This document shows, one piece after another, positions 3,932 to 47,224 of a stretch of 64,000 bases of DNA. The notes under the pieces were generated by a model. It was not told the DNA's origin. It saw only the letters and a list, made by a program, of their open reading frames with translations, and made no database searches. Both the position numbers and the translations under genes were made by a program. How positions within the stretch are numbered: position 1 is the stretch's first letter; each line of letters begins with the position of its first letter. Source of the stretch: a virus; IMG/VR virus record IMGVR_UViG_3300047160_005727, positions 1-64,000 of that record; one strand, 5' to 3'.

Positions 3932-4177
3932 ATGGATCCGATCCCGTATGATCCCGTCACCTGCGTGACGGCCGCCGAGTTGCGCAGCAAGGGTGTTGCT
4001 GTCACTTCAGACATTCCGGACCACGCATGGATACCCAAGAAGGCGGTCGAGCCTGTCGAGAAGCGTATTCCCAGCGACGATGGCGAGCCGCTCTACAGCT
4101 TCGACGTCATCTTTCACGCCCCGTTCACATGGCAGGAGGATCCAACCCATGATCAAGTTTGCCGTCATGACCCCTAG
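3932..4177 (+). CDS. Small hypothetical protein
   Basis: 81-aa ORF with AAGGA upstream, packed between neighbours. Confidence 0.65.
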   Translation: MDPIPYDPVTCVTAAELRSKGVAVTSDIPDHAWIPKKAVEPVEKRIPSDDGEPLYSFDVIFHAPFTWQEDPTHDQVCRHDP

Positions 4178-5357
4178 CCTGTGCCAGCCCGGTGGCGCCG
4201 AGCGGGTGATCTTGATCCAGGCCCGCTACGGCGACCCGACCCGGATGCAGTGCACAGGCATCGCACTCTCGGGTTACGGCGGACTTGATGAAGCACTGGG
4301 CCGCGATCTGTGCCGCTACACCACGATCCACGGGGACATGCCGCGGGGACGATGGCAGCGGCCCAAGGCGCCCATGGTGCAGACGACGTACAAGAACCTC
4401 AACGAAGCTGTTCTGTATGTCTGCAAAGAAGCCGACGTGTTGCTCACCTGGGGCGGGCTGTCGATGTCCAAGTTCACCGCCGGGCTCAAGCTGCCAGTAG
4501 TCTGCTGCTCGCACACGGATCGTGAAGTCGACAGCAACGAGATCTCGGGGATCACTCACCTGGTGTCGGTGTCGGAGACAGGCCGGCGCTACTTCGACAT
4601 GGCACTGAAGAAAGCCTACGGCGCCAACTTCCCGCCCGTGGCCGTGATCCCCAACGGCATCGAAGTCGATCGGGTCATGCCCCGGCGTGGCCGCGAGTGG
4701 CAGCGCCGGGAGTGGGGTGTCGGCCCGGATGACAAGGTCTTGCTCTACCTGGGCCGGCAGGCCATGTCCAAGAACCCCTGGGCGGCTGTCGAGGTTCTCT
4801 CGAAGCTCCCCGAGAACTACAAGCTCATGATGATCGGCAACCAGTCGTTTGCGCCCAGCGTGCCGATGCCCCGAGTGGTCGAGCTGGTGAATAAGCTGGG
4901 GCTCCAGGATCGCGTGAAGTTCTCGCCGCCCGTGGCGTTCGTCGGCGACGTGCTGGCTGGGGCTGACTGTCTGCTGCACCTGACTCTGAGCGAAGCCGAC
5001 AGCCTGGCGATCAAGGAAGCGTTCATGGCCAGGCTTCCCGTGGTGTGCACTCCGATCGGGGCGATCCCCGAGCTGGAGAAAGAGTTCGGCCAGGTCACCT
5101 GGAACGTCGCTCTCCGTCCGGCCGACGGCGAAGTCAAGGAGCTTGGCCCAGGTACTTACGGAGCTGTGCCGGCTGACCCGCTGTCGCTGAAGATCGATCC
5201 TGATGAAGCTGTGGCACAGATCGGCCGGGCTTTATCCGATGAGGCCAAGCCGATCTGCGATCGGATCCACATGATAGCCATGGAGCGCTGGACGGGCACT
5301 GCGATGTGCGACCGCTGGGCTTCCTACCTGGAGGAGGTCGTCGCGTCATGGAAGTGA
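4149..5357 (+). CDS. Glycosyltransferase, GT4 (GT-B) family
   Basis: GGAER, VSVSE, VIPNGIE, LYLGR...KNP and EADSLAIKEAFMARLPVV motifs. GGAGGA RBS precedes the ATG at 4149. Confidence 0.88.
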   Translation: MIKFAVMTPSLCQPGGAERVILIQARYGDPTRMQCTGIALSGYGGLDEALGRDLCRYTTIHGDMPRGRWQRPKAPMVQTTYKNLNEAVLYVCKEADVLLTWGGLSMSKFTAGLKLPVVCCSHTDREVDSNEISGITHLVSVSETGRRYFDMALKKAYGANFPPVAVIPNGIEVDRVMPRRGREWQRREWGVGPDDKVLLYLGRQAMSKNPWAAVEVLSKLPENYKLMMIGNQSFAPSVPMPRVVELVNKLGLQDRVKFSPPVAFVGDVLAGADCLLHLTLSEADSLAIKEAFMARLPVVCTPIGAIPELEKEFGQVTWNVALRPADGEVKELGPGTYGAVPADPLSLKIDPDEAVAQIGRALSDEAKPICDRIHMIAMERWTGTAMCDRWASYLEEVVASWK

Positions 5358-7594: not shown

Positions 7595-10500
7595 ATGTCT
7601 CTTACACTCAACCCGGCGAACCTGGCCCGGCGCGAAGCGGCCGAGGCCGGTGACTACTATCAGGTAGGCCAGGCATACGGCTTCCTGGTCAAGTCGGCTG
7701 CCAGACCGGTTGCAGCGCCGGTGTTGCACGGAAGACTGATCGTGACCCCACACAAGTGGGGCATGATCCTGGTGCCGAACTCCTTGATACGCGGCGTATT
7801 CGATGCCATCGACGAGCCCGGCGTCGAGCTACCGCTGCGCGACGGTGTCCTGAAGGGGCACATCTCCGTCTTCAGGCCCGAAGAGATCGACAAGATCGGC
7901 GGCGAGAACAAGATCAGTGAGCGAGGCCATCCGTTCTCGTACCAGCTTGGCCCCTTGATGGAAGTCGATCCCAAGGGCTGGGAGGAGATGTCCAAAGCCT
8001 GGTTCATCAAGGTCATGTCCCCTGAGCTGAAGGCGCTGCGCAGGAGCTACGGCCTCTCCCCGCTCCCTAACAACGATCACGAGTTTCACATTACGGTGGC
8101 TGTCAGGCGCAAGAACGTGCTGGGGGCCGGGGCGACCTCGAAGGCAGCGGCAGCCGACGAAGATGACGATGAAGATGTACATAGTGGCCTTAGCGACGAT
8201 GTACATCAAAGCGAGGAAGAAGAGGACAGCGGCGCGGACAATGACGACGGTAAAGTCAGGGTCAAGATCCCCCTGTCGATCCAGCGCATCTGCATAACCC
8301 GCATCTCTTTAGCGAAGCCAAACGGAAAGGAAAAAGGAGAGGACAGCGCGGACAGCGGACTTGACGACTTCATGGACATGCTCAGGAGCAAGTCCGGCTC
8401 CGTGAAGGAGGCCGCCGGCCTGGCTGATGCTTTTAAGGGAATGGGCAAAGGACTGGGTCAGGCAGTGCTCGGTGCCGGGCGAAGCGCCTTGCAGCGAGTC
8501 GGCTCGTCGCCGGTGGCGGGTAGCCTGGCATCGCTGGGCAAGCAGTTCGCAGCCGCCCCAGCAGCAATGACAAGACAGGCTCTCGGCAATACGGCCCGGT
8601 TCGTGGCCAGCGTACCTGCGGGTCAGAACTTCACCGGGCAGGCCGGCGCCGGGGCGCTCTCCCGTGCCGGTACCACACTCAAGAACCTGGGCCGGATCGC
8701 CGTCGCGCCCCGTTATCCCGGACTTGACCGGCCCGTCGGCGTGACTTCGATGAACCGGCCGTTTGATGCCACTCGGGCCATGCTCGGCAATATTGGCCGC
8801 AAGGGAAGCATCGGTGCCATGGGGCTCTCTGGCGTGGCGATCGGCAACGCCGCTCTCAGGACTTATCCGAACTGGGTCGGCCAGCATATTGCCGACGCAA
8901 CCGGCCAGGGTGAGAACGCCGAGAACATCAAGGCAACGATGCGATCAGAAGCTCCTGGGTTCTACGGCCACATGATCAAGGACACCTTGACCAACTCCCA
9001 GGAGCCTGCCTCGAAGTTCGTGCGCGGGGTCATCGGCGACATCGCTGTGCCGACCATTCGCAACGACATCTATAACGCCCGCCAGACCAAGCCTTGGCTG
9101 ATGGGCGCGATCGATACGCTGCGATCGACAACTCCTGCCGGCTGGCTGGCAACCCAGGGGCTCAAGGCGTTCGGCTCCGAGACGCCGCCGGATATCGCCG
9201 GCGCAGTCCAGCAACATGCTCCCGGACTGCTCGCAGGGACAGCTGAGAACCCTGAAGCGGTGGCGGCCAGCCCGTATGCGGGCCTGATCAAGAGCATGAC
9301 TCCGGCTGTGGCCCCGCAGACGGCCGGACAACCTTCGGCTGCTGAAGGGGTAGCTCACTACATCCGGACGACGAACCCGGAGAACGCGCGCGAGCGCTAC
9401 AACCAGATGCGGCGGCTGCTGCCACAGATGCCGCTGGCCTCGATCGCAGGGAACATCAAGGCCGGATCTGCCCTCGAAGGGCTCACGCCGGTCTTGGCGG
9501 GCGCTGGCCTTGGCGGCCTGGCCGGAAACCTGTATGGCCGGTTCCGCGGATCGGAAGACCTGTGGAGCGACACGCTGGGTGGAGCTGCCGTCGGCGGGGC
9601 CGGTGGTGCCGCCTACAGTCTCGTCAACAAGGCACAAGGCGCACCGACGATACCGAAGCCGGTACCAAGACCTTACACGCCACCACCGGGATCGCAGCCC
9701 AAGAACCTGGTCGAGGCCGTCAAGCCCTATTACGCGAATGTTCCGGGCGGTGTCGAAGGAGCGATCGCGCGAGCGCAGGCGAACCAGGCGCCGGTCGAAA
9801 AGTCGCTGGCCATGGCTCCCTGGAAGGCCGAGGATATCCGGGCCAACATCCCGGTCTCGGAGATCACCAAGGATCAGGCTGCGGTCGATCCCCGTAGGCC
9901 ACCCGAGACCAGCGGTGCCACGCTCAAGGGTTGGTCCGAGTCCAACTTCGATGAGGCCGTGAGAAACCCCAACGCTCCCACGGCCAAGATCAAGATGATC
10001 ACGCCGCCCGACAGCCCCGAGGACAGCAGGCAGCTTCTGGAGCACGAGCTGACCCATGCGGGGATCCAGCTCACGCCGATGGCCCGGACGATACGTGAGA
10101 CAGGCAGGGCGCCCGAGGTCGATGAAAAGGCTCAGCACTCAGGCGCCGAGCTGGTACGACGGCTCGGTGGAACACCCAGCAGCAAAATGCTTGATCCGAA
10201 GTCGTTCGAGAACTACGCGACCTCGGCCCGCGAGCTTGATCCCCGGCTGGCTCAGATCAAGCGGTTCTACGCTGAGCACAGCGGCCAGGATGTGACGACG
10301 CCCGAAGAAGCCAAGAACGCCATGAACTGGTTCCGCGCCTGGATCAAGTCCCCGGAAGGTCAAGCCAGGGCCGGTGCGACAGGCCGGGACTGGGAGTCGC
10401 TCTTCCAGCTGCCCGAATGGCAACAGACTCTCGAGGGTGCGGCAGCCCGGCGCATGCCAGGACTGGTCGACATCAGCCGGCTCGATCCCAACCTGAAGGC

Positions 10501-12325
10501 GGCGGCCGATGCTGGTGTCCAGGATCTCCTCAAGGACTGGAAGCCTCCCGAGAAGAACCCGTTCGCCGGCTTTGAAGGCTTCGCCCAGACCTTCCACGCC
10601 AAGACCCCGCGGGAGCAGGCGATCGAGTCGCTGGGGCGGATCGCCTTGATGGCAGCGCCGCCCCTGGCGATGGCAGGCGGGCTAGCTCTGTGGCGCCCCT
10701 GGGAGCAGTCAGCACCTCCCAAGCCGGTGCGGCGCAGAATGCCGGTCGAGATGGCGAAGGTCGCAGGCGCGGCTGAAGAACACGGCATCGAGTTCGAGGG
10801 GAAGTATCCGTGGTCCTCGCCGGGAAAGCTGCATCGATGGTCGGTCGAACATCAGCTTTTCAACCAGGCATACGATCGGCACCATCAAGGCGGCAAAGTA
10901 CCCAAAAAGGAAGCGCTACGCCGCGCGGTGGAAGAGTACGACCAGACCGCAGACAAGATCAATGCGATAGGGCTGGGCGCATTCACTGGTGGCCTGGGTG
11001 GCTGGGGGCTGAACCGCGCGCTGGGCGGAGAGCACAACCTCGCTGCCCAGCTTGGTGGCGCTGCCCTGGGTGGCCTGGGTGGCTGGGGGCTGCACCACCT
11101 GGCGACGAAGTACGGCGAGACCAAGACCGCCGCCGTCTCGGACGTGATGAACTCGATCTACGCGCAGCTACCCCGGATCAGAGTGCCCGATACGGCCGTT
11201 GGAGCTGGTGTGGGAGCCCTCGGCGGCCTGGGGTACGACCTGATCCGGGGTGGAGATCCCAAGGCTCGCTGGCGGCAGCGCATCGGCCGGATCTTGACCG
11301 GGGCCGGTGCCGGCGCGCTGGCAGGCAATGTGATCGGCGATCGAACCCGCCGCTACATCTCGAACAGCTTCGTGCCCTTCAGCTATGAGAACAACCCGGC
11401 CCAGGCCCTCAAGCCGCGCAGCCTGTCGCACATCTGGAACGCGGCGATCCTGGACAAGCCGCAGTACCAGCAGGCCAACGAAGAAGGACTGAAGCGGCTC
11501 CAGGCGCAGGGCAAGCCGGTGGTTTCCGCCCTGACGAGCAAGGACTATGACTATCGCAAGGACACGCTGGAGAACTACATGCTGCCGGCACGGCGGGAGA
11601 TCTTCCGCCGCCAGCTGGGCGTACACACCGAGAACCCGCTCACCGACATCTGGAAGGAAGGCCCGAACGATCAGCTCTTCTTGAACCCCAAGAACCCCAA
11701 GTCGCTGGCCACGGCCCAGCGGTTCATGGGCTCGATGGCCGGCGGCATTCCCAAGGACATCTTCAGCGACGTGGGCGACGCGCGCCGTTACCTAAACGCC
11801 ATGAGCAGCGATAACGAAGATGCTGCCCTGTTCTCGTCGGCCGTGACCGGCGGGCAGCAGGTGCCGTTCAAGATGCTGCCGGGCGGCAAGGGCATCGAAG
11901 GCTCGGTCCTCGATCGCTGGGACTATACCCTCGATCCCAAGGAGCAAGCGTTCTTCAAAGACAATATCAAGAACATGCTCACGAACCCGAAATGGCGTCA
12001 GGCGAAATTCGCTCCCAAGGAGCCGCTCTCCGGTTACATGGACCCCGCCAAGATCAACGGTCCCAACTCGGATGCGTGGAAGGCGCTGGCCGCGCGCTGG
12101 GGCCTGGACAACCTGGTGTCGTACAAGCATCCCTGGATCACCCAGCGGTTTCGCATCGAGCCCAACCCTGAGCCGGTAAAGCGAAACGCGCAGGGCTTTA
12201 TGCCGTTTGGAACACCGCAACAGATCCAGCTGTTGTCGCCGACCGGCGAGAACTGGGGTGATCCGATCACTCAAGCGGGGCATGCCGAGTTCAAGAAGCA
12301 CCCGTCGGTGATACCAGCACTATGA
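7595..12325 (+). CDS. Polyvalent polyprotein: 2H phosphoesterase, acidic tract, glycine-zipper modules and zincin metallopeptidase
   Basis: Two HxS/T motifs (GHISV at 7859, FHITV at 8087). HExxH (EHELTHAG, ~10040) with a downstream Glu (SARELDPR). GGLGGWGL glycine zippers. Modules are separated by K-x-A motifs. Confidence 0.8.
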   Translation: MSLTLNPANLARREAAEAGDYYQVGQAYGFLVKSAARPVAAPVLHGRLIVTPHKWGMILVPNSLIRGVFDAIDEPGVELPLRDGVLKGHISVFRPEEIDKIGGENKISERGHPFSYQLGPLMEVDPKGWEEMSKAWFIKVMSPELKALRRSYGLSPLPNNDHEFHITVAVRRKNVLGAGATSKAAAADEDDDEDVHSGLSDDVHQSEEEEDSGADNDDGKVRVKIPLSIQRICITRISLAKPNGKEKGEDSADSGLDDFMDMLRSKSGSVKEAAGLADAFKGMGKGLGQAVLGAGRSALQRVGSSPVAGSLASLGKQFAAAPAAMTRQALGNTARFVASVPAGQNFTGQAGAGALSRAGTTLKNLGRIAVAPRYPGLDRPVGVTSMNRPFDATRAMLGNIGRKGSIGAMGLSGVAIGNAALRTYPNWVGQHIADATGQGENAENIKATMRSEAPGFYGHMIKDTLTNSQEPASKFVRGVIGDIAVPTIRNDIYNARQTKPWLMGAIDTLRSTTPAGWLATQGLKAFGSETPPDIAGAVQQHAPGLLAGTAENPEAVAASPYAGLIKSMTPAVAPQTAGQPSAAEGVAHYIRTTNPENARERYNQMRRLLPQMPLASIAGNIKAGSALEGLTPVLAGAGLGGLAGNLYGRFRGSEDLWSDTLGGAAVGGAGGAAYSLVNKAQGAPTIPKPVPRPYTPPPGSQPKNLVEAVKPYYANVPGGVEGAIARAQANQAPVEKSLAMAPWKAEDIRANIPVSEITKDQAAVDPRRPPETSGATLKGWSESNFDEAVRNPNAPTAKIKMITPPDSPEDSRQLLEHELTHAGIQLTPMARTIRETGRAPEVDEKAQHSGAELVRRLGGTPSSKMLDPKSFENYATSARELDPRLAQIKRFYAEHSGQDVTTPEEAKNAMNWFRAWIKSPEGQARAGATGRDWESLFQLPEWQQTLEGAAARRMPGLVDISRLDPNLKAAADAGVQDLLKDWKPPEKNPFAGFEGFAQTFHAKTPREQAIESLGRIALMAAPPLAMAGGLALWRPWEQSAPPKPVRRRMPVEMAKVAGAAEEHGIEFEGKYPWSSPGKLHRWSVEHQLFNQAYDRHHQGGKVPKKEALRRAVEEYDQTADKINAIGLGAFTGGLGGWGLNRALGGEHNLAAQLGGAALGGLGGWGLHHLATKYGETKTAAVSDVMNSIYAQLPRIRVPDTAVGAGVGALGGLGYDLIRGGDPKARWRQRIGRILTGAGAGALAGNVIGDRTRRYISNSFVPFSYENNPAQALKPRSLSHIWNAAILDKPQYQQANEEGLKRLQAQGKPVVSALTSKDYDYRKDTLENYMLPARREIFRRQLGVHTENPLTDIWKEGPNDQLFLNPKNPKSLATAQRFMGSMAGGIPKDIFSDVGDARRYLNAMSSDNEDAALFSSAVTGGQQVPFKMLPGGKGIEGSVLDRWDYTLDPKEQAFFKDNIKNMLTNPKWRQAKFAPKEPLSGYMDPAKINGPNSDAWKALAARWGLDNLVSYKHPWITQRFRIEPNPEPVKRNAQGFMPFGTPQQIQLLSPTGENWGDPITQAGHAEFKKHPSVIPAL

Positions 12326-15300
12326 GCGACCCGTTCAGCCTACCGACCTGGCAGGAGATATTTCAGGAAGCAGCCATCGAGCTGATGCCTGAGCTGGTCA
12401 AGACCGCCAAGAAGAAAAAGAAGCCAAAGCCGCCAGCCCTGCTTGCCGAAGACGAGAAGATCCGGGCCAACAAGAAGAAGCCCGAGAACCAACAGCCGCA
12501 CAAGTTCGAGGCTGCCGAGTGGACCCACGGTAATGGCCATCCCCGCTGTATCCGCTGTGGGGGTGAAGAGCCGGCGGGCGGCATGTGTGGTGACGGCCGG
12601 CCGATCCCGGAGGTCTTGAAGGTCGCAGCCGACTATGCGCCCGGGCTGCCCTCGAAGTCCGATATGGGTCACGCCAATAAGCTCCGCGTCGGCCAGATGC
12701 TCGACTACATAGTCCAGCAGCATGATGCCGAGCGCGCAGGCCGGCACTTCGATGTCCGGTTCGGTAACCCCGAGATGGGCTTGCTCTCCTGGGCCGCGCG
12801 CAAGGGGCTGCCCGAGCCCGGAGCCAAGCACCTTGCAGTCCAGCAACCCGTGCACAGACACGGCTACAAGGACTTCGAGGGTACGATCCCCGAGGGCTAT
12901 GGCGCCGGGACGGTCAAGAAGCACGACGAAGGTCAGGTGCTGATAACCAAGGTAACGCCCGAGTCTATTCACTTCACGACGGCTCACCCGAGGCACCCCG
13001 AGCGGTTCGTGCTGGCGAGGCCCAAGGGCTGGGGCAACAAGAACTGGCTGATGATGAACACGACCCCCAGAGACGAAGTCCCTTACGAGAAGATCCGCTA
13101 CAAGAAGATCGCCCCCGAAGACGTCGAACCTCATCTCCAGAAGATGCAGGCCGGTGATACCGCCGAGGCCAAAGTCGATGGCGCCAGCCAGCTCGTGCAG
13201 CTGGCCAAGAACCACGCCGAGATGTTGAGCTTCCGGACCTCGAAGACCACGGGCCGGCCGATCTTCCACACCGAGCGCTTCTTCGGCGGCAGGCCCGAGA
13301 TCCCGGTGCCCAAGCACCTGGAGGGGTCGATCCTGAAAGGGGAGATGTACGCCGCCAAGGACAAGGGTGTTGGTACGCCCCAGGATGTTGGTATGTTACT
13401 GAACTCAGGCATCGCCCGGAGCCTTCAGCTCCAGAAGGAGAAGGGACTTGCCTTACGCAACATGCTCTATGATGTTCAACAATACGGTAAGAGGCCGATC
13501 GATCCGACCGTTACGCCGCGTATTGAACGGCGCAAGATGCTTGAGGAGATCGCCGGTCATCTGCCAAAGGACAAGTTTCATGTCTCAGAAGAAGCCCACG
13601 GCCCCGAAGAAGCAACCAAGCTCTGGAACAAGATCAGGTCGGGTAAACATCCCCTTACACAAGAGGGCGCTGTCCTCCACCCAGCAGTTGGTATCCCAAG
13701 CAAAGCAAAGTTGGTCGAGGACTATGACGTTCATTTGCGGGGTACTTTCCCGGGTGAAGGCAAGCGTCAGCAAACTGTGGGCGGGTTTGTGTACTCGCAC
13801 AAGCCGACTGGGCCGATCGCTGGCAAGGTCGGTACGGGCTTTAGCGATGAGTTCTTGAAGGACGTAGCCGGGGATCCAGAGGCTTACATTGGCCGTGTGG
13901 CACGGTTACGATCGCAACAGAAGTTACCGTCAGGTGCGCTTCGAGCCCCTAGCTTTATAGCTTTACATGAAGACTACCCAGATAAGCCCAGGGGATCATT
14001 TCGGAAGACTGGAAGTTCTAGCGCGCGCACCGGACAGGGAAGGGAACCGAAACAGTTGGTGGACTTGCCGCTGTGCCTGCGGAACGGTGAAGGACATCAG
14101 AAGCTGTCGACTGACCGGCGGGCACCCAACGCGCTCATGTGGTTGCTTGAAAAGCGAGCAGAAGCGAGCACAGCTCCAGACCCACGGCATGTCCGACACA
14201 CCGGTATACGCGGTCTGGCGCAACATGATCCAGCGATGTACCGACAAGGGGAGCAAGGACTATCCCCGATGGGGAGGCCGGGGCATAACGGTATGTCCCC
14301 AGTGGCGGGACTTCACAGTCTTCTTCAGGGACATGGGGCTGCCGCCGCCGGGCATGACCATCGAACGGAAAGAGAACAATGGCCCCTACTCCCCGGAGAA
14401 TTGCCACTGGGCAACCAAGTCGGCGCAGGCACGGAACAGGCGGAACAACCGGCGCCTGACCGTGAACGGTCTGACGCTGCCAGTGTCAGCGTGGGCAGAA
14501 CGGAACGGCGTACCCTTCCGCACGATCCTGAAAAGGCTGTTTCGGGGATATTCGGACTCGGAGGCGGTGGCAACGAAGTCGTTCAGGGGACGCAACGGGG
14601 CGTCTCCACCAAGGTTGGTGCAGCCAAACTAGCCAGCTTCTTCGGCTATGGTCAGCCGGCTCCGGGCGGTGCCTTGACCGTGCCGGACTACGAGCTTCCC
14701 GGCGAGCGTATCAAGCGAAAGCGGCCGGCGGCTGTGATAGCTGCCCCGCCGCCGACGTGGATGGAGACGCTACGCAACTCGCTCTGGGGCAACCCCAACG
14801 CCCTGGTGCCCGACGTCATCAAGCAGATCGAAGAGGAGGAAGAGGGCGGGGGCATGATCCCCAAGGTCGGTGCGGCCAAGTGTCCGCCCGGCGAATGCTG
14901 CCCGAAGTGCGGAGCCCGGCTTGAATGCGATCCTGACAGCGGCAAGTGCAACCGGTGTGGCCATCTCTGGGGCGAGAAAGCCGCTGCCTACACGACGGAG
15001 AACACGAGTACCCTCCCCGATGGCCGCACACTCAATATCGACGCGCTGAATGACCGGGCCAAGAACCGGTCTGTCGAACGGATCCCCCTGGCCGATCTGG
15101 CGAAGCCCAACCGTTCTTCCAGTACCGGCTTCTCGAAGAAGCGATATGCCAAGCTCGATATGAACAAGCCAATTCTCGTCGGCACCGACGGTACGCTCTA
15201 TGACGGCCGCCACCGGCTAGCCCGGCATCTCGATGAAAGCAAGTCGCATATCCGTGCGCGCCGTGTCACCGACAAGGATATCGATGCCGTGACGGTAACT

Positions 15301-17946
15301 CATGCGCCGAAAGGTGACCGGATCGATGAAAGCCGGATCGAGATGCTCCCGGAGAAAGCTGCTGCGATCATTGATGACCTCAAACGAGCCAAGGCCCAAA
15401 GCGATCGAGGCAATTATTCCGAGAAGCATCGTATCCTCGCGAAGCTGCTCAGCGAACGCCCTAATGAGTTCATCCAGGACTCATCCGGGCGGGGCATGAT
15501 CGGGCTGACACACACAACAGGCTTCCGTTTACATGCACCAGCTACGCTGGTGCGCAGTAAGCTCATCAAGGCGGCCGACTTGCTCCCGTGGGTAAACCTC
15601 CAGGAACAGCAGAAGCGGGTCGCTAAGCGTGTAGGCGAAGGTCAGAATTTGTTGGTCTATCACGGGCTCGGAAGCGGTAAGAGCCTCGCGAGCCTGGCGG
15701 CTGCTGAAGGTGTCGGCGGACCATATACCGCGATCGTTCCAGCATCGCTCAAACCAAACTACCTTAAAGAAATACATAAATTTACTACTGAGACATCACC
15801 ATCAGAAGTAATGTCTTATACTGGGGTTGGGTTAGGCAAACAGCCCAAGATCACGCCCAATACGATCATCATGGACGAATGCCTTCCTACTGGGACACCG
15901 GTTGATGGAAGACCGATCGAAACCTACGGTATCGGCGATCTTGTCTGGAGCATCGATCATGTGACGAGTCGGATCGAACGGCGATCAGTGATACGCACAG
16001 CAGTACGGTATACCGATGAGATCGCAGTTATTGAATTCGCAAGCGGACGTCAGCTGGTTTGTACACCCAACCATTCGATCTACACGCAGCGAGGCTACAT
16101 AGCCACCGAAGACTTGATCGAAGGTGATAACGGTTATACACTCTACGGAAACGCTGTCCCCTTCGATCAAGGAGAAGACGATGCCGCAGTGGATCGAGGC
16201 CGTATGCGGGATGTGCGGAAAGACATTCTTGGCATTCAAGTCGCCGTCCAAGATGGTGAAGCATTGCTCCAAAACATGCCGGGAAAAAGTTCGAGTTATC
16301 GCCATGAAGGCCATGAGCGACGCGACCCGCGATCAGCGTATACAGCGAATGACCAGCAACAACCCCATGGCGGATGCGGCGTGTCGTCAGCGTGTATCGA
16401 CGACAATGCGAGAGCGGGGATACAAGCCTCGCGTGCGTGGCGGCAATGGCGCCGGACCAACGGAGCAGGAAGTGGCCGTGGCCACGGCACTCAGCTGGCC
16501 GACGAATGTCGTGGTCGTAACTGGGCTGAGTTATCGTCCTTGGCATTACAAGGTCGATGTCGGGAACCCGGATCTGAAGATAGCCATCGAGATCGATGGT
16601 CGGTGCCACAATTCGTCAAAGCGGCGAGAGGCAGACAGAAGGAAGGATACCTTCTTGCGATCGATCGGGTGGTCAGTGTTGCGGTTTACAAACAAGGATG
16701 TGGACCAGAATTTGACTGGCTGTGTCCAGATGGTCTTGTCCACGATCTCACTGTCGACGGCAACCACAATTTCTTCGCCGATGGCTACCTAGTTCATAAC
16801 TCCCAGCGCATCCGTAACCCGGGCTCGGCCGGCACGCGCGCGGCGATGGATCTGGCCATGAAGGCCAAGCACCGGATCTTGCTCTCGGGTACGCCGATCG
16901 TGAACCAGCCCAGCGACCTGGCCGTGCCGCTGTCGATCCTGACCGGCAACGAGATGAGCCCGGCTGCCTTCAACCAGAAGTTCGTCGGCAGCAAGACGGT
17001 CAGTCCCGGCTGGATGGGATGGTTCCAGGGCGTCAAGCCGGTCAAGACCCCGACACTCCAGAACGAAGACGATCTCGAGCGACTGCTCGAAGGGCATGTC
17101 GACTACCAGGCGTCGCGTGCGCCTGAAGGTGTCAAAACTAAAGACGAACGAGTCGAGGTGGATCTTAGTCCCGAACAGCAGAATTTCTACAAACTCATGT
17201 GGGGTAAGCTACCGTGGATGCTTCGCTGGAAGCTGTCCAATGACTATCCACTGGACAAGAATGAGCTGGCTCACCTGTCAGCGTTCATGACCGGTCCGCG
17301 GCAGGCTGCCCTGTCGCTGTATCCCTATCACTCGTCCAAAGATCCGATGCATGCGTTTGGCACGTCGTCCAAGCTCCAAGCGGCCATGGGCAGTCTGAAG
17401 GAGACCCTGGCGAAAGATCCGCGAGCCAAGGCCATCGTCTACTCGAACTTCATCGATGCCGGCCTGACGCCCTACGCTGCCGCCCTCGAACATGAAGGCA
17501 TCCCGTATGGGCAGTTCCACGGTCAGATGAACGACGAAGACCGCAAGCGAACCCTGGACGAATATAACGCCGGTAAGCGTCGCGTGCTCCTGATCGGTCC
17601 CGCTGGCGCCGAGGGGATCTCGGCCAAGGGTACACAGCTCATTCAGCTTCTTGATCCGCACTGGAACGAAGCCCGACTGGGTCAAGCGCGCGGCCGCGGG
17701 CTGCGGTTCGATAGTCATGAGGGTTTGCCCGAAGAGCTACGCGATGTGAGAATACAGCGGTTCGTGGCCAAGATGCCGCCGCCCGGCTGGCTGGGCAGCA
17801 TGTTCGGCCAGAAGCCCCGGCCATCGGCGGATGAGGTGCTCGAACGGCAGTCGCAGCGCAAGGAAGAACTCAACGAGCAGTTCCGGGATGTCCTGCGCCG
17901 GGTGGGCTCGCCTGACTACCGCCGGCCGTGGCATCTCTTCGGCTGA
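12322..17946 (+). CDS. Polyvalent polyprotein: LigD-type 3'-phosphoesterase, ATP-dependent DNA ligase, Zn ribbon, ParB-like domain and intein-containing SF2 (SNF2/D6-D11-like) helicase
   Basis: PE domain: QQHDAERAGRHFDVRF...LLSWA.RKG...HLAVQ...H.Y.DFEGTIPEGYGAGTV. Ligase motifs: AKVDG, KGEMY, LYDV, QEGAV, KAK, GKVGTGFSD, LRAPSF. ParB-like: PILV...LYDGRHR. Helicase: YHGLGSGKS, IVPASL, DE|SQ, LSGTP, HWN..R.GQARGRGLR.DSH. Confidence 0.9.
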   Translation: MSDPFSLPTWQEIFQEAAIELMPELVKTAKKKKKPKPPALLAEDEKIRANKKKPENQQPHKFEAAEWTHGNGHPRCIRCGGEEPAGGMCGDGRPIPEVLKVAADYAPGLPSKSDMGHANKLRVGQMLDYIVQQHDAERAGRHFDVRFGNPEMGLLSWAARKGLPEPGAKHLAVQQPVHRHGYKDFEGTIPEGYGAGTVKKHDEGQVLITKVTPESIHFTTAHPRHPERFVLARPKGWGNKNWLMMNTTPRDEVPYEKIRYKKIAPEDVEPHLQKMQAGDTAEAKVDGASQLVQLAKNHAEMLSFRTSKTTGRPIFHTERFFGGRPEIPVPKHLEGSILKGEMYAAKDKGVGTPQDVGMLLNSGIARSLQLQKEKGLALRNMLYDVQQYGKRPIDPTVTPRIERRKMLEEIAGHLPKDKFHVSEEAHGPEEATKLWNKIRSGKHPLTQEGAVLHPAVGIPSKAKLVEDYDVHLRGTFPGEGKRQQTVGGFVYSHKPTGPIAGKVGTGFSDEFLKDVAGDPEAYIGRVARLRSQQKLPSGALRAPSFIALHEDYPDKPRGSFRKTGSSSARTGQGREPKQLVDLPLCLRNGEGHQKLSTDRRAPNALMWLLEKRAEASTAPDPRHVRHTGIRGLAQHDPAMYRQGEQGLSPMGRPGHNGMSPVAGLHSLLQGHGAAAAGHDHRTEREQWPLLPGELPLGNQVGAGTEQAEQPAPDRERSDAASVSVGRTERRTLPHDPEKAVSGIFGLGGGGNEVVQGTQRGVSTKVGAAKLASFFGYGQPAPGGALTVPDYELPGERIKRKRPAAVIAAPPPTWMETLRNSLWGNPNALVPDVIKQIEEEEEGGGMIPKVGAAKCPPGECCPKCGARLECDPDSGKCNRCGHLWGEKAAAYTTENTSTLPDGRTLNIDALNDRAKNRSVERIPLADLAKPNRSSSTGFSKKRYAKLDMNKPILVGTDGTLYDGRHRLARHLDESKSHIRARRVTDKDIDAVTVTHAPKGDRIDESRIEMLPEKAAAIIDDLKRAKAQSDRGNYSEKHRILAKLLSERPNEFIQDSSGRGMIGLTHTTGFRLHAPATLVRSKLIKAADLLPWVNLQEQQKRVAKRVGEGQNLLVYHGLGSGKSLASLAAAEGVGGPYTAIVPASLKPNYLKEIHKFTTETSPSEVMSYTGVGLGKQPKITPNTIIMDECLPTGTPVDGRPIETYGIGDLVWSIDHVTSRIERRSVIRTAVRYTDEIAVIEFASGRQLVCTPNHSIYTQRGYIATEDLIEGDNGYTLYGNAVPFDQGEDDAAVDRGRMRDVRKDILGIQVAVQDGEALLQNMPGKSSSYRHEGHERRDPRSAYTANDQQQPHGGCGVSSACIDDNARAGIQASRAWRQWRRTNGAGSGRGHGTQLADECRGRNWAELSSLALQGRCREPGSEDSHRDRWSVPQFVKAARGRQKEGYLLAIDRVVSVAVYKQGCGPEFDWLCPDGLVHDLTVDGNHNFFADGYLVHNSQRIRNPGSAGTRAAMDLAMKAKHRILLSGTPIVNQPSDLAVPLSILTGNEMSPAAFNQKFVGSKTVSPGWMGWFQGVKPVKTPTLQNEDDLERLLEGHVDYQASRAPEGVKTKDERVEVDLSPEQQNFYKLMWGKLPWMLRWKLSNDYPLDKNELAHLSAFMTGPRQAALSLYPYHSSKDPMHAFGTSSKLQAAMGSLKETLAKDPRAKAIVYSNFIDAGLTPYAAALEHEGIPYGQFHGQMNDEDRKRTLDEYNAGKRRVLLIGPAGAEGISAKGTQLIQLLDPHWNEARLGQARGRGLRFDSHEGLPEELRDVRIQRFVAKMPPPGWLGSMFGQKPRPSADEVLERQSQRKEELNEQFRDVLRRVGSPDYRRPWHLFG
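13967..14632 (+). CDS. HNH homing endonuclease overprinted in the +1 frame inside the 12322-17946 ORF
   Basis: FGRLEV...W.CRCACG...RSCGC...W.NM.QRC...YPRWGGRGITVC..W..F..F..DMG......TIER..NNG.YSPENC.WAT...Q.RN, a typical phage HNH family pattern. Confidence 0.88.
   Translation: MKTTQISPGDHFGRLEVLARAPDREGNRNSWWTCRCACGTVKDIRSCRLTGGHPTRSCGCLKSEQKRAQLQTHGMSDTPVYAVWRNMIQRCTDKGSKDYPRWGGRGITVCPQWRDFTVFFRDMGLPPPGMTIERKENNGPYSPENCHWATKSAQARNRRNNRRLTVNGLTLPVSAWAERNGVPFRTILKRLFRGYSDSEAVATKSFRGRNGASPPRLVQPN
15880..16800 (+). mobile_element. Intein (307 aa) inserted in the Walker B motif of the helicase
   Basis: IMDE|CLPTGTPV start, block B CTPNHSIYT, block F/G VHDLTVDGNHNFFADGYLVHN|SQ with a +1 Ser. 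Confidence 0.93.
16181..16792 (+). CDS. DUF559/Vsr-like endonuclease with an N-terminal Zn finger, nested in the +1 frame inside the intein
   Basis: AAGGAG RBS at 16169-16174 and ATG at 16181. CGMCGK...HCSKTC; PTEQE; YKVDVG...KIAIEIDGRCH...DRRKDTFLRSIGWSVLRF. Confidence 0.88.
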   Translation: MPQWIEAVCGMCGKTFLAFKSPSKMVKHCSKTCREKVRVIAMKAMSDATRDQRIQRMTSNNPMADAACRQRVSTTMRERGYKPRVRGGNGAGPTEQEVAVATALSWPTNVVVVTGLSYRPWHYKVDVGNPDLKIAIEIDGRCHNSSKRREADRRKDTFLRSIGWSVLRFTNKDVDQNLTGCVQMVLSTISLSTATTISSPMAT

Positions 17947-24529: not shown

Positions 24530-26506
24530 ATGCCCGATGATCTTTTTACCAACCCCCTGGTAGGTGTCCCCAACCAGAACCAGGTCGATACCGTCAACAA
24601 GATCCTGGGATGGGGTGGTCTGGCGCTGGCCGGCGGTGCCGCAGCGCGTGGTCTGACCGGGCTCGGTCAGTTCTTCGGCCGCGAGACGGGTGGTGAGCCC
24701 AAGACGCCGATGCGGCAGTCGTTTGTGCGGATCCCGGTGCCGGTCAAGGTGAAGACCCGCGCCGAGCGCGATGCCATGCTTGCGCAGGCCCAGGAAGAGA
24801 TCGACAAGGAAGCGGCATTCGCCAAGCTGGCCGAGGACTCCTTCGGGGCGACTATCGCCCATTTGGGCGGTCTACTTCGCGAACCCCACGAGCAGGTAGG
24901 CTTGCTACGCAAGACACTCAGCGGCTGGGGTGAGCCTGGTATGGCGCAGAAGCCATGGACCTACATAGCTGCGCCGCTTGCTATCGGTGGTGGGCTTTAC
25001 GGTGGCTGGAAGCTGACCGACTATCTGCTCAACAAGACCCGCTCGGCCGAACAGGAAAGCGAGCTGGAGTCTGCGCGCAAGGAATACGAGTCGGCTCTGG
25101 CCGGTCGGCGAAAGCTGGCGTCGGCCGAGCCAGATCCGCTCGATGATCTGGCTGCTGAGTACGAGAAGCGGGCGCTTGTCAACGAACTTGCGGGTATTGG
25201 CCTGGGCGCTGCCGGACTCACAGCCTTGCTTTCTGGGCTGGGCACCTACCGCTGGACGAGATCACTGGCCGAGGACAAGGCTGTCGAAGAAGCGGTACGT
25301 CGCCGGCAGGCCCAGCTTGCCGAGCAGTCACCCAGTCCGATCATGGCGGTCCCGACGCCGGTGCCGATCTACGAGCCTCGCAAGCCAGCCTGGCATCGCC
25401 TGCTTGGTCACGGTGACGACACGGACAAAGGTCTGGCCGGCGAGGGCGATCGTCCCATGCGGTTCGGCGAGCACAAAGCGGCCATGGCCAAGGAAGCTGC
25501 CGAGGTTGTCCACGGTGGTCCGATCTCGAGCTGGACTGGTGCCACGCTGGGGCGTGCTGGTGCCACGCTTGCCGGGCTCCCGGTATTAACTATGGACACG
25601 CTGCGCAGCCCCGAGTACCCCGAGCGGTTCAAGGAGCACGAGAAGCTCGTCAAGCAGTTCGAGAAGGTCCGGCCGCAGCAGCTTTCCGATGTCAAGGTTC
25701 GGCTGGGCGGCACCGACACGATCGATGACATCATCAGGACCTGGCAAAACCGGCGGACCGGTCCCATCGGTAAGGTTCTGGGTACGCTCGGGGCGCCGAT
25801 GGGCAACCTGCGGTCAACACTGATGCGAAGTCCGCACTACAACCCATACTCGAACGCCGTGGTTCAGTTCGCGCATAGCAAGCCGATCACGCAGCACGAG
25901 CTGGGTCATGCTATCGACTTCAACCAGGTGGAGCCCTCCAAGAACTTCTGGCAGCGCCAGCTTCAGGGTACGGGCCGTGATCTTTATGGGCTGGCTTACA
26001 GCGCGATCCCGTTCGCCAACCTGTGGCATGAAGCCCAGGCCAACAACCAGAGCCGGCTGGCGCTGGAAGACATCTACAAGAAGAACCCGGCCAAGCTGCG
26101 AGCTGAAGAAGTCGAACGGTTGAAAGTCCTGCCGGCCGGTTACGGATCGTACGTCGGCGGCAACCTGCTGGGTGCCCCTGGTGCTACCATAGGCTCGCTC
26201 GCCGGCAAGGGCCTTGGTATGGGCTTGAGCGCCATTCATGCCGCTGGCAAGGACGAGCCGGTCAAGAAGCCGAAGAAGTCGGAGCCCGATCACAAGAAGG
26301 CTGCCAGCATCAACCAAGCTGCCGATGACTTCCTGGGCCGGATGCGATCCAACCAGATGGCCGTCTGGAACCGGCTGATGACGCCGACTGATGGCAAGCC
26401 GGCCAAGCCCGCGAAACCGGCCGAACCACTTCCACCCCGCCTTCCCACCCTGGCTGGACTGGGCGGCGGTACAGCGCAGCATTTACCGGTAACTGACGCG
26501 AGGTGA
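24530..26506 (+). CDS. Multi-module virion protein: TM/glycine-zipper modules plus a zincin metallopeptidase
   Basis: QHELGHAID (HExxH) with HEAQAN as likely third ligand; K-x-A motifs between modules. Confidence 0.78.
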   Translation: MPDDLFTNPLVGVPNQNQVDTVNKILGWGGLALAGGAAARGLTGLGQFFGRETGGEPKTPMRQSFVRIPVPVKVKTRAERDAMLAQAQEEIDKEAAFAKLAEDSFGATIAHLGGLLREPHEQVGLLRKTLSGWGEPGMAQKPWTYIAAPLAIGGGLYGGWKLTDYLLNKTRSAEQESELESARKEYESALAGRRKLASAEPDPLDDLAAEYEKRALVNELAGIGLGAAGLTALLSGLGTYRWTRSLAEDKAVEEAVRRRQAQLAEQSPSPIMAVPTPVPIYEPRKPAWHRLLGHGDDTDKGLAGEGDRPMRFGEHKAAMAKEAAEVVHGGPISSWTGATLGRAGATLAGLPVLTMDTLRSPEYPERFKEHEKLVKQFEKVRPQQLSDVKVRLGGTDTIDDIIRTWQNRRTGPIGKVLGTLGAPMGNLRSTLMRSPHYNPYSNAVVQFAHSKPITQHELGHAIDFNQVEPSKNFWQRQLQGTGRDLYGLAYSAIPFANLWHEAQANNQSRLALEDIYKKNPAKLRAEEVERLKVLPAGYGSYVGGNLLGAPGATIGSLAGKGLGMGLSAIHAAGKDEPVKKPKKSEPDHKKAASINQAADDFLGRMRSNQMAVWNRLMTPTDGKPAKPAKPAEPLPPRLPTLAGLGGGTAQHLPVTDAR

Positions 26507-26513
26507 TCATGCC

Positions 26514-29500
26514 ATGCCGAGCGTCCTCGGGGAGTCAGCACTTGGGCCAATACATCACGTCCCGCGCGATGGCGATGGCGACGGCCATGTCCATGATGGA
26601 ACGACGAAGGAGCACACAGTCTCGCGTTCGCCAGCGCTTCCGAAGCACGAAGCTAACGGGCTGCGGTCTTTCGGCGACTCTGACTCTATCCGAGCCCGGA
26701 TCCATGACCGAGTCCGTGAAGCTGCCAGTAACATCCCACCCATCACCAACCAGCGACACACCCTGACTCTCGAGGACGTCGGCTACGAAGGTGCCACCCA
26801 GCACGGTATCAACGACTGGAAGAAAGCTATCCTGGGCGGGCGTAGCTTGGGCTCGCGGCTCCGCGGCACCTGGGTGCTGACCGATAACGACACTGGCAAG
26901 GTCATCGAGAAGAAGCGATCGACCGTGGCCACGGTCCCCTACATGACCAGCCACGGCACGTTCGTCCAGAACGGCACCGAGTACACCCTGTCGCACCAGC
27001 TCAGGCTCCGGCCCGGTGTGTTTACCCGCGTGCAGCAGAATGGCGAGCTGGAAGCCCATGTCAACGTGATGCCGGGCAAGGGTGTCGCTCACCGCATCTT
27101 TATGGAGCCGGACACAGGCGTCTTCCGGCTCAAGGTCGGCCAGTCCAAGATGCCCCTGACGTCGGTCCTGCGCGCGATGGGCGCCAGCGACCGGCAGTTG
27201 CACGACGCCTGGGGTGACAACTACCAGGCCAACATGCTCAAGGACGACCCGTCCGTCATCGGCAAGCTGCACTCCCGGCTGGTTCGCAAGCCTGACTCGA
27301 CTAAGACCCCCGAGCAGGAAGTCCGTGAGTCGTTCGAGGGAATGGGGCTCGATCCCGAGGTCACCAAGCGCACTCTGGGCAAGCCCTACGATCGTGTCTC
27401 GCTCGACCAGATGCTGGATACCACCAAGAAGCTCATGGCCATCAACAAGGGTGAGGCCGAAACCGACGATCGCGACCACCTGGCCTACATGACTGCTCTG
27501 GGACCGGAAGACCTGATGGCCGAGCGGGTCGGCAAAGACCGCATGCTCTTGGGGAAGGTTCTTTGGAAAGCATCGATGACTGGCGGGCTCAAGCATGTCC
27601 AGCCGGACTTGCTCACTCGCGGCATCAACGCGGCCATCATGAGCAGCGGGCTCGGCCAGCCTACCGAGGGCATCAACCCGGCCATGATCTTCGACCAGCA
27701 GGCCCGGATCAGCCGGCTGGGCGTGGGCGGTATCCCATCGGTCGACTCGGTCCCGGCTGAAGCTCGTAACGTCCAGCCTTCGCACTTCGGTCTGATCGAT
27801 CCGCTGGTCACTCCCGAGAGCTTGCACGTCGGCATCGATAGCCGGGTGGCCCAGGGAACCATGAAGGGTGACGACGGTCGGCTCTACACGCCGTTCCGGA
27901 ACGTGAAGACTGGCCGTATGGAGCACCGGAGCGCCCAGGACCTGGCTGATGCTGTCATTGCTTTTCCAGGTGAACTGAACACCCTCAAGCCTCATGTCTC
28001 GGCGCTGGTGGGCGGCAAGATCCGGGACGTGCCCCGGAACCAGGTGCAGTACGAGCTGCCCAACATGGACGACGCCTTCAGCTCGATCTCGAACCTGGTG
28101 CCCCTCAAGTCCACTGTGAAAGGCCAGCGCGAGGTCATGGCCGGCCGCATGATCACCCAGGCGCTGCCGGTGTCGAACCCGCAGGCCCCGATGCTGCAAG
28201 CCGGCATCCAGGGCAGTAACGACAGCTACGAGTCCCGCTACGGCAAGCACATGGGTGCCTTGCACAGTGATGTCGGCGGCACCGTGGAGCATGTGGACAA
28301 GGACAAGGGCACGATCACGGTTCGCGGCGATGACGGGCAGCTGCGCAAGCACGAGCTTTATGTCAACTATCCCTATAACAGGAAGACTTATATCCATCAG
28401 ACACCAACCGTCGGGGTTGGGGACCGGGTCAACAAGGGTAGTCTGCTGGCCCGGTCTAACTACACCGACGAGCATGGCGTGGCTGCCCTGGGCCAGAACG
28501 CCCGCGTGGCCTACATTCCGTTCCGCGGACAGAACTTCGAGGACGCGATCGTTATCAGTGAGTCGATGGCCAAGCGGATGTCCTCGGAGCACATGTACCA
28601 GCACTCGCTCGACGCGGAAGAGGGGCTCAAGCCCAGCAAGAAGGCCCATGTCTCGATCTTCCCCGGGCGCTACGACAAGAAGATGCTGGAGACCATCGAC
28701 AACGAGGGCGTGGTCAAGCCCGGCACGATCGTCAACCACGGCGATCCGCTGATCCTGGCGGTCAAGGAACGTGAACGTACCCACGGAGCTATCAGCCGGG
28801 GCCGGTCGGCCTCCTGGGCCGATCACTCGAAGACCTGGGACCATCATGCTCCCGGTGAAGTGACTGACGTCGAGAAGACGCCCAACGGCATCGTGGTCTC
28901 GGTCAAGAGTACCAACCCGATGGAAGTCGGCGACAAGATGTCCGGCAGGTACGGGGACAAGGGAGTGGTTTCGTCGATCGTGCCCGACCACGAGATGCCC
29001 CACGACAGCCAGGGACGACCGTTCGAGGTGTTGTTGAACCCGCTGGGTATCATCTCCCGGACGAACCCGGCACAGAACATCGAGACGGCGTTGGGCAAGA
29101 TCTCCGAGAAGACGGGCCGGCCTTACCGGGTCGTCGACTTCGACAACAACCGTGACTATACCGAGTGGGCCATCGAAGAGCTGGCCAAGCATGGCATGAA
29201 GTCGACCGACACGATCCACGATCCGAGTTCGGGCCGGGATATCCCCAAGGTGCTTACTGGCAGCCGCTGGTTCATGAAGCTGCACCATACCAGCGAGTCC
29301 AAGGCCCAGGGCCGTGGCACCGGTGGCTACACGGCCGAGGGTACACCAGCGCGCGGCGGCGAAGCCGGCTCCAAGCGGATCTCTCTGATGGACATCAACG
29401 CGCTCTTGTCGCACGGAGCGACCGAAGTCCTGCGTGATGCTGGCGCAGTCCGGGGTCAGGCCCATCCGGAATTCTGGCAGCAGTTCATGGCCGGCCAGCC

Positions 29501-35090: not shown

Positions 35091-35138
35091 ATGGGGGGAT
35101 GGGACGGCCTGCGGGCTGCCCTCCCCCATCCTTTTTTT
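35091..35138 (+). terminator. Intrinsic terminator
   Basis: GGATGGG...CCCATCC stem followed by T7. Confidence 0.7.
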
Positions 35139-35156
35139 AACTATCAGGCGGCAGGG

Positions 35157-47172: not shown

Positions 47173-47224
47173 GTCTTTGCACTCGGGCACGGCTGCTGCA
47201 TCGGTCAAAGGAGTGACCCCACTC

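Follow-up and report, generated by a model that had tools for sequence, protein, structure and literature searches.

A helicase module in a phage polyvalent protein: kinship with the D6/D11 ATPases of poxviruses and giant viruses and association with phage multisubunit RNA polymerases

A helicase module interrupted by an intein

The window analyzed here, the whole 64,000-nucleotide stretch formed by positions 1 to 64,000 of the IMG/VR virus record IMGVR_UViG_3300047160_005727, is the first 64 kb of a single-contig phage genome of 141,143 bp in which the + strand holds nearly all genes. An open reading frame (ORF) for a polyvalent protein of 1874 amino acids, recognized by its Pfam domains, occupies positions 12322-17946 (+); its start overlaps the stop of a preceding polyvalent ORF of 1576 amino acids (ATGA). 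Residues 1082-1874 of the larger protein form a complete ATPase of the superfamily 2 (SF2)/SNF2 type. A first-pass annotation of the sequence had likened this helicase to the D6 and D11 transcription ATPases of poxviruses and other nucleocytoplasmic large DNA viruses (NCLDV) and had envisaged it as part of a packaged transcription apparatus. Our analysis places it in a family of phage helicases that, judged with high confidence from profile scores, motifs and a phylogenetic tree, is the sister group of the D6/D11 helicases of giant viruses and poxviruses, to which NPH-I (D11) and VETF-s (D6) belong.

Both motif strings that had been singled out in the annotation, and the pentapeptide IKAAD at which it placed the release of the helicase, are present in the + frame of the ORF: IKAAD lies at residue 1082 (nt 15565), the Walker A motif LLVYHGLGSGKS covers residues 1110-1121 (nt 15649-15684), and the motif VI string HWNEARLGQARGRGLRFDSHEGLP begins at residue 1780 (nt 17659). 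The module is encoded in two exteins. The N-extein (15565-15879, +) comprises the border motif IKAADLLPWVNLQ, the Q-motif region, Walker A, and motif II through IIMDE; the C-extein (16801-17946, +) carries the rest of motif II (SQRIRNPGS), motif III (LSGTPIVN), lobe 2, motif V (GAEGIS), the string HWNEARLGQARGRGLRFDSHEGLPEELRDVRIQRF, which is motif VI plus an extension from nt 17659 onward, and a C-terminal helix followed by the stop. Between IIMDE and SQRIRNPGS lies an intein of 307 amino acids (15880-16800, +; PF14890 / PT-HINT), which starts with Cys1187, ends with His-Asn1493 and has Ser1494 as its +1 residue. With its signature CLPTG...TPNH...LVHN followed by Ser, in which the block B motif TPNH was read by eye, it qualifies as a Hint element. 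The identical insertion site is occupied in eight homologs, and the closest kin are intein-free. Since the intein sits within motif II, the helicase can be active only after protein splicing, a reaction that we infer for the window protein from an alignment spliced in silico; with the intein removed in this manner, the ATPase motif set is intact. Another frame within the intein contains an ORF of 222 amino acids (16124-16792, +) with a DUF559/Vsr-like endonuclease domain (PF04480, 2.2e-11, above cut-off), and the intein's own frame is of low complexity across these positions. The arrangement suggests a mini-intein whose linker is overprinted by a free-standing gene for a homing endonuclease.

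Pfam detects Helicase_C (7.8e-14) in the window protein, and SNF2-rel_dom reaches 24.6 bits, just below its cut-off of 24.9, because the intein splits the domain; the cut-off is passed by 20 of 20 intein-free homologs. A family profile of 480 positions, built from 20 intein-free homologs, aligns end to end and as a single domain with the 486-residue product spliced in silico (686 bits, positions 5-478). Motif II reads DEAHRLRN in the family and DESQRIRN in the window after splicing, both of the SNF2 type (DEAH/Q plus R-[IL]-[KR]-N); the comparable motif in SsoRad54 is DEAQNIKN. The classical SNF2 motifs I (D[DE]MGLGKT) and VI (WNP...Q..DR.HR.GQ) are absent from the window helicase, which instead has YHGLGSGKS and WNE..LGQARGRGLRFDSH, with an extra SH..LP insert.

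The predicted fold was taken from an AlphaFold2 model of the 50%-identical homolog P0064 (pLDDT 88.5). This model has the SNF2-type fold, including helical inserts in both lobes, and matches INO80 with Z 31.0 (VIA; rmsd 2.7, 401 residues aligned) and SRCAP, SNF2h, ISWI, Mot1 and CSB with Z 26-29; NPH-I follows at Z 24.3, with the longest alignment (422 residues) and the top identity (21%). As a pointer to NPH-I the fold search was discarded, since INO80, SRCAP and ISWI reach higher values (Z 26-31 vs 24); lobe orientation influences Z, and the fold scores consequently speak neither for nor against the sister relation. Motifs and domain matches lead us to predict, with high confidence, that the C-terminal module is a two-lobed, DNA-dependent ATPase/translocase of the SNF2 superfamily.

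Kinship with the D6/D11 ATPases

Genes for D6/D11-like helicases belong to the core set of Nucleocytoviricota and of fungal cytoplasmic plasmids, and in poxviruses their products are essential cofactors of the RNA polymerase (RNAP). When the window protein is compared with the PDB, its best sequence match is vaccinia NPH-I (1.2e-7, 33 bits), followed by an ISWI-type remodeler (1.9e-4). Among PDB proteins, the family profile gives much the same score to SsoRad54 (82 bits), INO80 and ISWI (74) and NPH-I (73, with the longest coverage), and 39 bits to VETF-s. The decisive comparison is with proteins of giant viruses. Against the hidden Markov model (HMM) of the phage family, their D6/D11-like helicases score 135-195 bits, and their matches run past motif VI to position 476. 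All other SNF2 proteins tested remain at or below 103 bits: RapA at 35.6, a PB1-like helicase at 62, a Streptococcus-phage SNF2 protein at 103, five bacterial SNF2 proteins at 40-93, and SNF2 proteins in the PDB at no more than 82. In the bacterial proteins, RapA and the Streptococcus-phage protein, the match stops at or just after motif VI, around position 410.

The giant-virus homologs, proteins of 740-1371 amino acids bearing SPYRGLLVYHGLGSGKS, were picked from the distant matches of the family search. In the PDB they match only NPH-I (1e-21; 7e-15) and VETF-s; their contigs encode a pox-type poly(A) polymerase, RNase III and a Ulp1-like protease, and the ESM Atlas clusters nearest to them are Nucleocytoviricota 'DEAD/SNF2-like helicases'. 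A second helicase on one of these contigs likewise has VETF-s and NPH-I as its only PDB matches. The ESM Atlas neighbors of one phage-family member include a cluster named 'putative Nucleoside triphosphatase I', which we regard as a lead only.

A maximum-likelihood tree (IQ-TREE, LG+C20, 44 rows x 498 columns), in which eight SNF2 proteins outside D6/D11 were included and metagenomic giant-virus helicases, found through word-sharing with the query, stand in for D6/D11, separates the phage family and the giant-virus clade from all other SNF2 proteins with support of 100/100 on a long branch. The giant-virus clade itself is supported at 100/99 and the monophyly of the phage family at 84/77; a quick tree of 60 rows is concordant. 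RapA and the ordinary bacterial and phage SNF2 proteins are on the far side of this split. An orthology with RapA was consequently rejected, in view also of its 35.6 bits, and so was, by HMM score and tree placement, an assignment to the PB1-type replication helicases.

The grouping of phage and giant-virus proteins is explained by the motifs that they have in common, namely YHGLGSGK[ST], LSGTPI[IV]N.P, [GS]AEGI[SN], and EP[HY]WN..R..Q..GR..R..SH..LP...R.V.V with its 7-residue insert after motif VI, where other SNF2 proteins mostly have ADEMGLGKT, TGTP.EN, AGG.G[IL].L and WNP...Q..[GD]R..R[IL]GQ. The phage proteins hence carry the D6/D11 signatures H-x-x-G-x-GK[ST], TPI[IV]N, [GS]EGI[SN] and Q..GR..R..SH..LP, and the two motifs on which the first-pass annotation had relied proved to be diagnostic: NPH-I and the giant-virus homologs share them, and they are absent from the classical SNF2 proteins sampled. 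The likeness of the phage family to NPH-I, VETF-s and the NCLDV superfamily II helicases thus embraces the signatures of motifs I, III, V and VI, the insert and the conserved strand that follows it and, according to the P0064 model, the fold; moreover, both groups, which are sister clades, belong to viruses that encode their own multisubunit RNAP.

The resemblance to D6/D11 was therefore borne out, and membership in that family was not. In the tree, the phage family stands beside the giant-virus clade, as its sister, and not inside it; its motif II is SNF2-like (DEAHRLRN, DESQRIRN in the window) and differs from the DE.HN[FV][IV]S of D11 (DE.HNFIS in D6/D11), and the C-terminal domain of NPH-I (NPHI_C, PF08469) gave no match at E<=1 in 20 family members. 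The SNF2-like motif II and the missing NPHI_C domain make the family an SNF2-superfamily clade next to D6/D11 and not a member of it. It further differs from D6/D11 in lacking long inter-lobe inserts, in its size of ~480 amino acids, in its usual fusion into polyvalent proteins, and in its patchy presence in tailed phages in place of core-gene status; its partnership with the RNAP is putative.

The phage family is large. A search of 1.84 billion cluster representatives returned 9513 matches at E<=1e-3, of which 673 reach E<=1e-30, well beyond what chance could yield. The best 150 homologs are 32-81% identical over the exteins and belong to proteins of 261-2913 amino acids in which the helicase stands at the start, in the middle or at the end; the majority are intein-free. 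Family members are almost all metagenomic and usually reside within polyvalent proteins, with LigD_N, ligase, GNAT, NUDIX and HAD/PNK-phosphatase as recurrent fusion partners. Of 50,697 phage records, only two contain a full-length relative, with 31% identity, namely those of Pseudanabaena phage PA-SR01 and Salmonella phage Arash; the window helicase is much further removed from PB1-like helicases. The Arash protein, Gp217 (OQ632216), scores 414 bits against the family HMM and is 31% identical to the window helicase. Among species-representative genomes, the family occurs in metagenome-assembled genomes (MAGs) only, mostly on contigs of ~100-226 kb that resemble mis-binned phage genomes.

Association with the phage RNA polymerase and the virion

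The window encodes a phage multisubunit RNAP downstream of the helicase. Its beta subunit is fused to the N-terminal half of beta' (beta-beta'N; 26514-30983, +; Rpb2_6 7.5e-54, Rpb1_2 5.6e-23) and is 31% identical to Arash Gp206; the C-terminal half of beta' (beta'C; 35091-37133, +; Rpb1_5 2.3e-15) matches Arash Gp216. A major capsid protein follows (49701-50645, +; phrog_2522, 1.5e-6), with a tblastn match to Arash gp226. The polyvalent, RNAP and head genes thus share one same-strand block, and the 141,143-bp genome contains a single RNAP set and a single helicase of the D6/D11-sister family.

The RNAP beta subunit, mostly as ORFs of ~1460-1495 amino acids, is present in eight of the nine IMG/VR records whose helicase is at least 51% identical to that of the window; the lone record without it is a 60%-complete fragment whose near-twin has the RNAP. 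At greater distance, a phage-type RNAP (E 3e-102 to 4e-250) occurs in all seven MAG assemblies (7/7) in which a helicase of 30-39% identity lies on a large phage-like contig, and wherever contig numbering permits the check, helicase and RNAP are found on the same contig, as verified for the loci L027, L028 and L034. Arash encodes both as well. In L034 the helicase gene separates beta-beta'N from beta'C, in L027 and L028 it is the divergently oriented neighbor of beta-beta'N, and in Arash it comes directly downstream of beta'; in the window's subclade it is found on the same strand as the RNAP, roughly 10-40 kb ahead of it. Nearly all phages with the helicase encode an RNAP, but the RNAP can occur without the helicase. 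The co-occurrence expected in the first-pass annotation hence holds for the RNAP given the helicase and fails for the helicase given the RNAP.

Several observations on these RNAP phages may be recorded in passing. RNAP layouts among the relatives (genomes G009, G010/G011 and G013-G015) are mostly the beta-beta'N fusion of ~1460-1495 amino acids; single ORFs of 2060-2873, a set of 233 + 249 + 999 and a pair of 1202 + 683 amino acids also occur, and in Vibrio phages D181 and D148 a homing endonuclease is annotated inside the RNAP match. The contig with the L034 helicase bears a second, unrelated SNF2-rel_dom ORF of 646 amino acids (L041, G016:C8:98050-101772; 87 bits) ~5 kb upstream of the RNAP; in the tree, this ORF joins the PB1-like helicase, a placement that may be due to a long-branch artefact. 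Another, distinct SF2 helicase is encoded in several RNAP relatives (L094, L106, G037-G043) by an ORF of ~630-730 amino acids that matches the family profile weakly, at 28-39 bits. These relatives include the set's four records without the helicase family studied here; in L094 and L106 the ORF is no more than 10 kb away from beta'C, and it may be a non-orthologous substitute.

Arash has the same helicase family, the same RNAP type (31%, fused beta-beta'N) and related capsid/head genes as the window's phage. Gp217 differs from the window helicase in being a stand-alone protein of 472 amino acids that has neither an intein nor a K-x-A leader and is encoded immediately after beta'. Among family members, Gp217 alone has experimental data, in the form of virion mass spectrometry: the liquid chromatography-mass spectrometry analysis of purified virions recorded 1148 spectra, 100% coverage and 38 unique peptides for Gp217, next to 3516 spectra for beta (Gp206), 1333 for the major capsid protein and 1210 for beta' (Gp216), and Gp217 is among the seven most detected virion proteins named there (PMC10585845). 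It is apparently packaged with the RNAP, like NPH-I and VETF, which are packaged in the virion with the poxvirus polymerase (PMC6211774). The packaged apparatus that the first-pass annotation had proposed is thereby upheld for a homolog of 31% identity; for the window's phage, packaging would follow from homology, gene position and polyvalent architecture.

Release of the helicase at IKAAD had also been proposed, and the part of this claim that concerns the border stands. The motif K-x-[AS]-[DAE]-L-x-P-x-[VI]-x-L-Q-x-[HQ]-Q opens the module in almost every homolog, and stand-alone homologs begin 0-10 residues ahead of the K-x-A motif; because the homolog starts cluster there, IKAAD is the true N-terminal border of the helicase module. 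Six similar sites (LKVAAD, KVGAAK twice, EKAAA twice, and IKAAD) occur between recognizable modules of ORF 12322-17946. Genome-wide, KxAA is found 45 times against 17.8 expected from per-protein shuffles, with the strongest excess (6 vs 0.36 expected) in an ORF of 447 amino acids (47177-48520) just upstream of the capsid region, followed by both polyvalent ORFs (7595-12325 and 12322-17946) and ORF 24530-26506. K-x-A-A fits a candidate maturation-protease site or a short capsid-targeting leader; the motif might just as well belong to the helicase fold itself. Pfam and PHROGs recognized no protease able to cut K-x-A sites among the neighboring ORFs.

Polyvalent context and possible roles of the helicase

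Upstream of the helicase, ORF 12322-17946 encodes a LigD-type 3'-phosphoesterase domain (residues 132-231; 12715-13014, +; PF13298, 3.8e-15), the adenylation domain of an ATP-dependent DNA ligase (residues 267-443; 13120-13650, +; PF01068, 27.8 bits, above cut-off) with its KVDG motif at residues 284-287, and a module with a ParB/Srx-like DGRHR motif that was read by eye (residues 890-985; 14989-15276, +), for which phrog_17560 (2.3e-7) is the sole match and Pfam gave none. The stretch between the ligase and this last module, residues ~549-771, is of odd composition and is overlapped in another frame by an ORF of 221 amino acids (13967-14632, +) that has no Pfam match at E<=0.1. The preceding polyvalent ORF (7595-12325, +; 1576 amino acids) contains a 2H-SAK phosphoesterase domain (PF22547, 9.8e-10), a HELTH zincin-like motif that was spotted by eye and is matched by no Pfam model, and long Gly/Ala-rich stretches. 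In the relatives P0004, P0005 and L004, the helicase forms the end of an ORF of 2587-2984 amino acids, and both polyvalent ORFs may therefore be fused there. LigD_N, ligase and SNF2 helicase in a single ORF, a 2H-SAK neighbor, and virion genes in the same block together mark the protein as polyvalent. Megablast of the ORF against the 50,697 phage records gave zero matches; most neighboring ORFs have no Pfam or PHROGs match, and no portal, protease or scaffold gene was recognized among them. Elsewhere, the window encodes two glycosyltransferases, of which one is fused to a methyltransferase, and a protein of 1142 amino acids that carries three Laminin_G_3 repeats (ConA-like lectin) and probably serves as a fibre or in receptor binding (3993-5357, 51627-52895, 59221-62649).

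The best reading of these data, to which we assign a probability of about one half, is that the helicase acts beside the virion RNAP in a manner resembling NPH-I or RapA. The polyvalent protein would be packed into the head together with the phage's own multisubunit RNAP; cleavage at sites of the K-x-A-A type, IKAAD among them, could liberate a helicase of ~486 amino acids, the size of its stand-alone homologs, which would then be ejected along with the DNA. On the incoming genome it would serve as an ATPase beside the virion RNAP, and its translocation along DNA could release or recycle polymerase or transcripts, or clear the template, during early transcription. Cleavage, ejection, the partnership with RNAP and the biochemical role are all inferred. 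We favor an NPH-I/RapA-like role because the only characterized relatives are RNAP cofactors, because the gene stands among RNAP subunit genes in several lineages, and because its spectral count in the Arash virion is near that of beta'. RapA (HepA) of E. coli, an SNF2 ATPase that recycles RNAP, belongs to the same superfamily and offers a functional analogy for a translocase associated with RNAP; it differs from the window helicase in its classical ADEVGLGKT and R.GQ motifs and is distant from it. A precedent exists among the phiKZ-group jumbo phages, where a Rad25-related SF2 helicase co-varies with the RNAP in phyletic pattern and neighborhood and a RapA-like role has been proposed (Iyer et al., 2021; PMC7824862); by its description, it apparently belongs to a different family and a different phage group.

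A number of observations weigh against this reading. Only one of 80 RNAP loci has the helicase in the +-10 kb around beta'C, so that tight adjacency is confined to some lineages. The helicase is present in 10 of the 26 large IMG/VR records with this RNAP type (beta'C 30-58% identical) and in 7 of the 15 RNAP records that are at least 90% complete, a patchiness that extends across the full range of RNAP identity. Vibrio phage D69 has an Arash-like RNAP and head module without the helicase, and Pseudanabaena phage PA-SR01 has the helicase beside a capsid gene and no RNAP; D69 and the patchy presence (10/26) led us to reject the view that this RNAP always needs the helicase as a partner. The presence of RNAP wherever there is a helicase may reflect inheritance within one phage lineage. 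The tree, furthermore, was computed without named vaccinia, African swine fever virus, eukaryotic or archaeal sequences and without P1 DarB. The Arash proteome comprises 116 proteins, including primase, ligase and ribonucleotide reductases, and carry-over is possible (PMC10585845). Finally, habitual fusion to repair and effector enzymes (LigD phosphoesterase, ligase, GNAT, NUDIX, HAD/PNK-phosphatase) is a mark of injected counter-defence proteins and not of a core transcription factor.

This last point leads to the foremost alternative, a counter-defence and repair hub of the type of DarB from phage P1, which we hold to be a serious, if less likely, explanation. An ejected SNF2 translocase would track the incoming phage DNA and, working with the LigD 3'-phosphoesterase, the ATP ligase, the ParB-like module and the 2H phosphoesterase and zincin of the neighboring protein, would strip off restriction or nucleoid proteins and heal nicks and ends; helicase and RNAP would then be linked merely as internal virion cargo of one lineage. 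In line with this idea, the survey by Iyer et al. (2017; PMC5512222) describes two SWI2/SNF2 families that act as hubs in injected polyvalent proteins, the paradigm being the head-packaged P1 DarB. Judged from the description given there, DarB and the window protein are alike in having an SNF2 module within a very large multi-enzyme protein, in belonging to a head-gene block and in their expected packing into the head and ejection; the 2H-SAK domain of the neighboring ORF is likewise a feature of polyvalent proteins. The architecture with LigD_N plus ligase fits such a hub, as do the fusion or adjacency of the helicase to LigD-type phosphoesterase and ligase in the distant loci L031 and L032, its fusion to GNAT, NUDIX and HAD in others, the patchy presence among RNAP phages and the RNAP-free PA-SR01. 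The window ORF and the domain lists of its homologs, however, contain no methyltransferase partner and, in particular, no detectable counterpart of the adenine methyltransferase dyad of DarB, the partners here being LigD phosphoesterase and ligase; in four lineages, stand-alone forms have RNAP subunit genes as direct neighbors on one side or both, and the cofactor role of NPH-I and VETF-s and the Arash spectral count near that of beta' also speak for the NPH-I/RapA-like role and against a hub.

It is improbable, in our view, that the helicase is a motor of genome internalization, that is, an ejected translocase that, with or without help from the RNAP, draws or ratchets the phage DNA into the host, in the way transcription does for T7 and N4. 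The predicted SNF2-type dsDNA translocase fold (Z 31 to INO80 for the P0064 model), the apparent virion association of the Arash homolog and the link to the virion RNAP would accord with such a motor; half of the related RNAP phages, however, do without the helicase, and no membrane or portal-binding module was detected in it. We know of no SNF2 protein that acts as a genome-internalization motor. Least probable of all is an ordinary intracellular replication or recombination helicase (UvsW- or Rad54-like) carried over into Arash virions, even though SNF2 helicases of jumbo phages have been proposed as UvsW stand-ins (PMC7824862) and the Arash proteome contains replication enzymes, for the gene lies in a same-strand block of polyvalent ORFs, RNAP and head genes and not among replication genes, its product is fused into polyvalent proteins, is named among the most detected virion proteins of Arash, and groups apart from the PB1-like helicase, whose gene adjoins a DNA polymerase gene.

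On a longer time scale, the D6/D11 helicases and the tailed-phage family could descend from one virion ATPase that was already working with a packaged multisubunit RNAP, the module having been inherited or exchanged between tailed phages and Nucleocytoviricota; we consider this scenario speculative and rather unlikely, and under it the phage family would also be an outgroup for the D6/D11 tree.

SNF2 modules in polyvalent proteins are already known from the survey of Iyer et al. (2017; PMC5512222), whose available text does not relate them to D6/D11 or to phage RNAP, and so is the Rad25-related helicase that tracks the RNAP (PMC7824862). Our literature search, whose coverage was incomplete so that an earlier description is possible, found no paper linking this tailed-phage helicase family to D6/D11 or to virion RNAP. 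The findings refine the picture of polyvalent proteins in that one SNF2 hub family is tied to phages encoding a multisubunit RNAP, namely by genome, by neighborhood and, in one cultured phage, by virion content. As one phylogenetic study rooted the D6/D11 tree on paralogs and not on cellular homologs (bioRxiv 10.1101/2022.05.25.493380), a sister family from tailed phages would provide an outgroup for that tree. At the same time, Salmonella phage Arash would offer a tractable bacterial system in which the role of an SNF2-like ATPase with a packaged RNAP can be studied.

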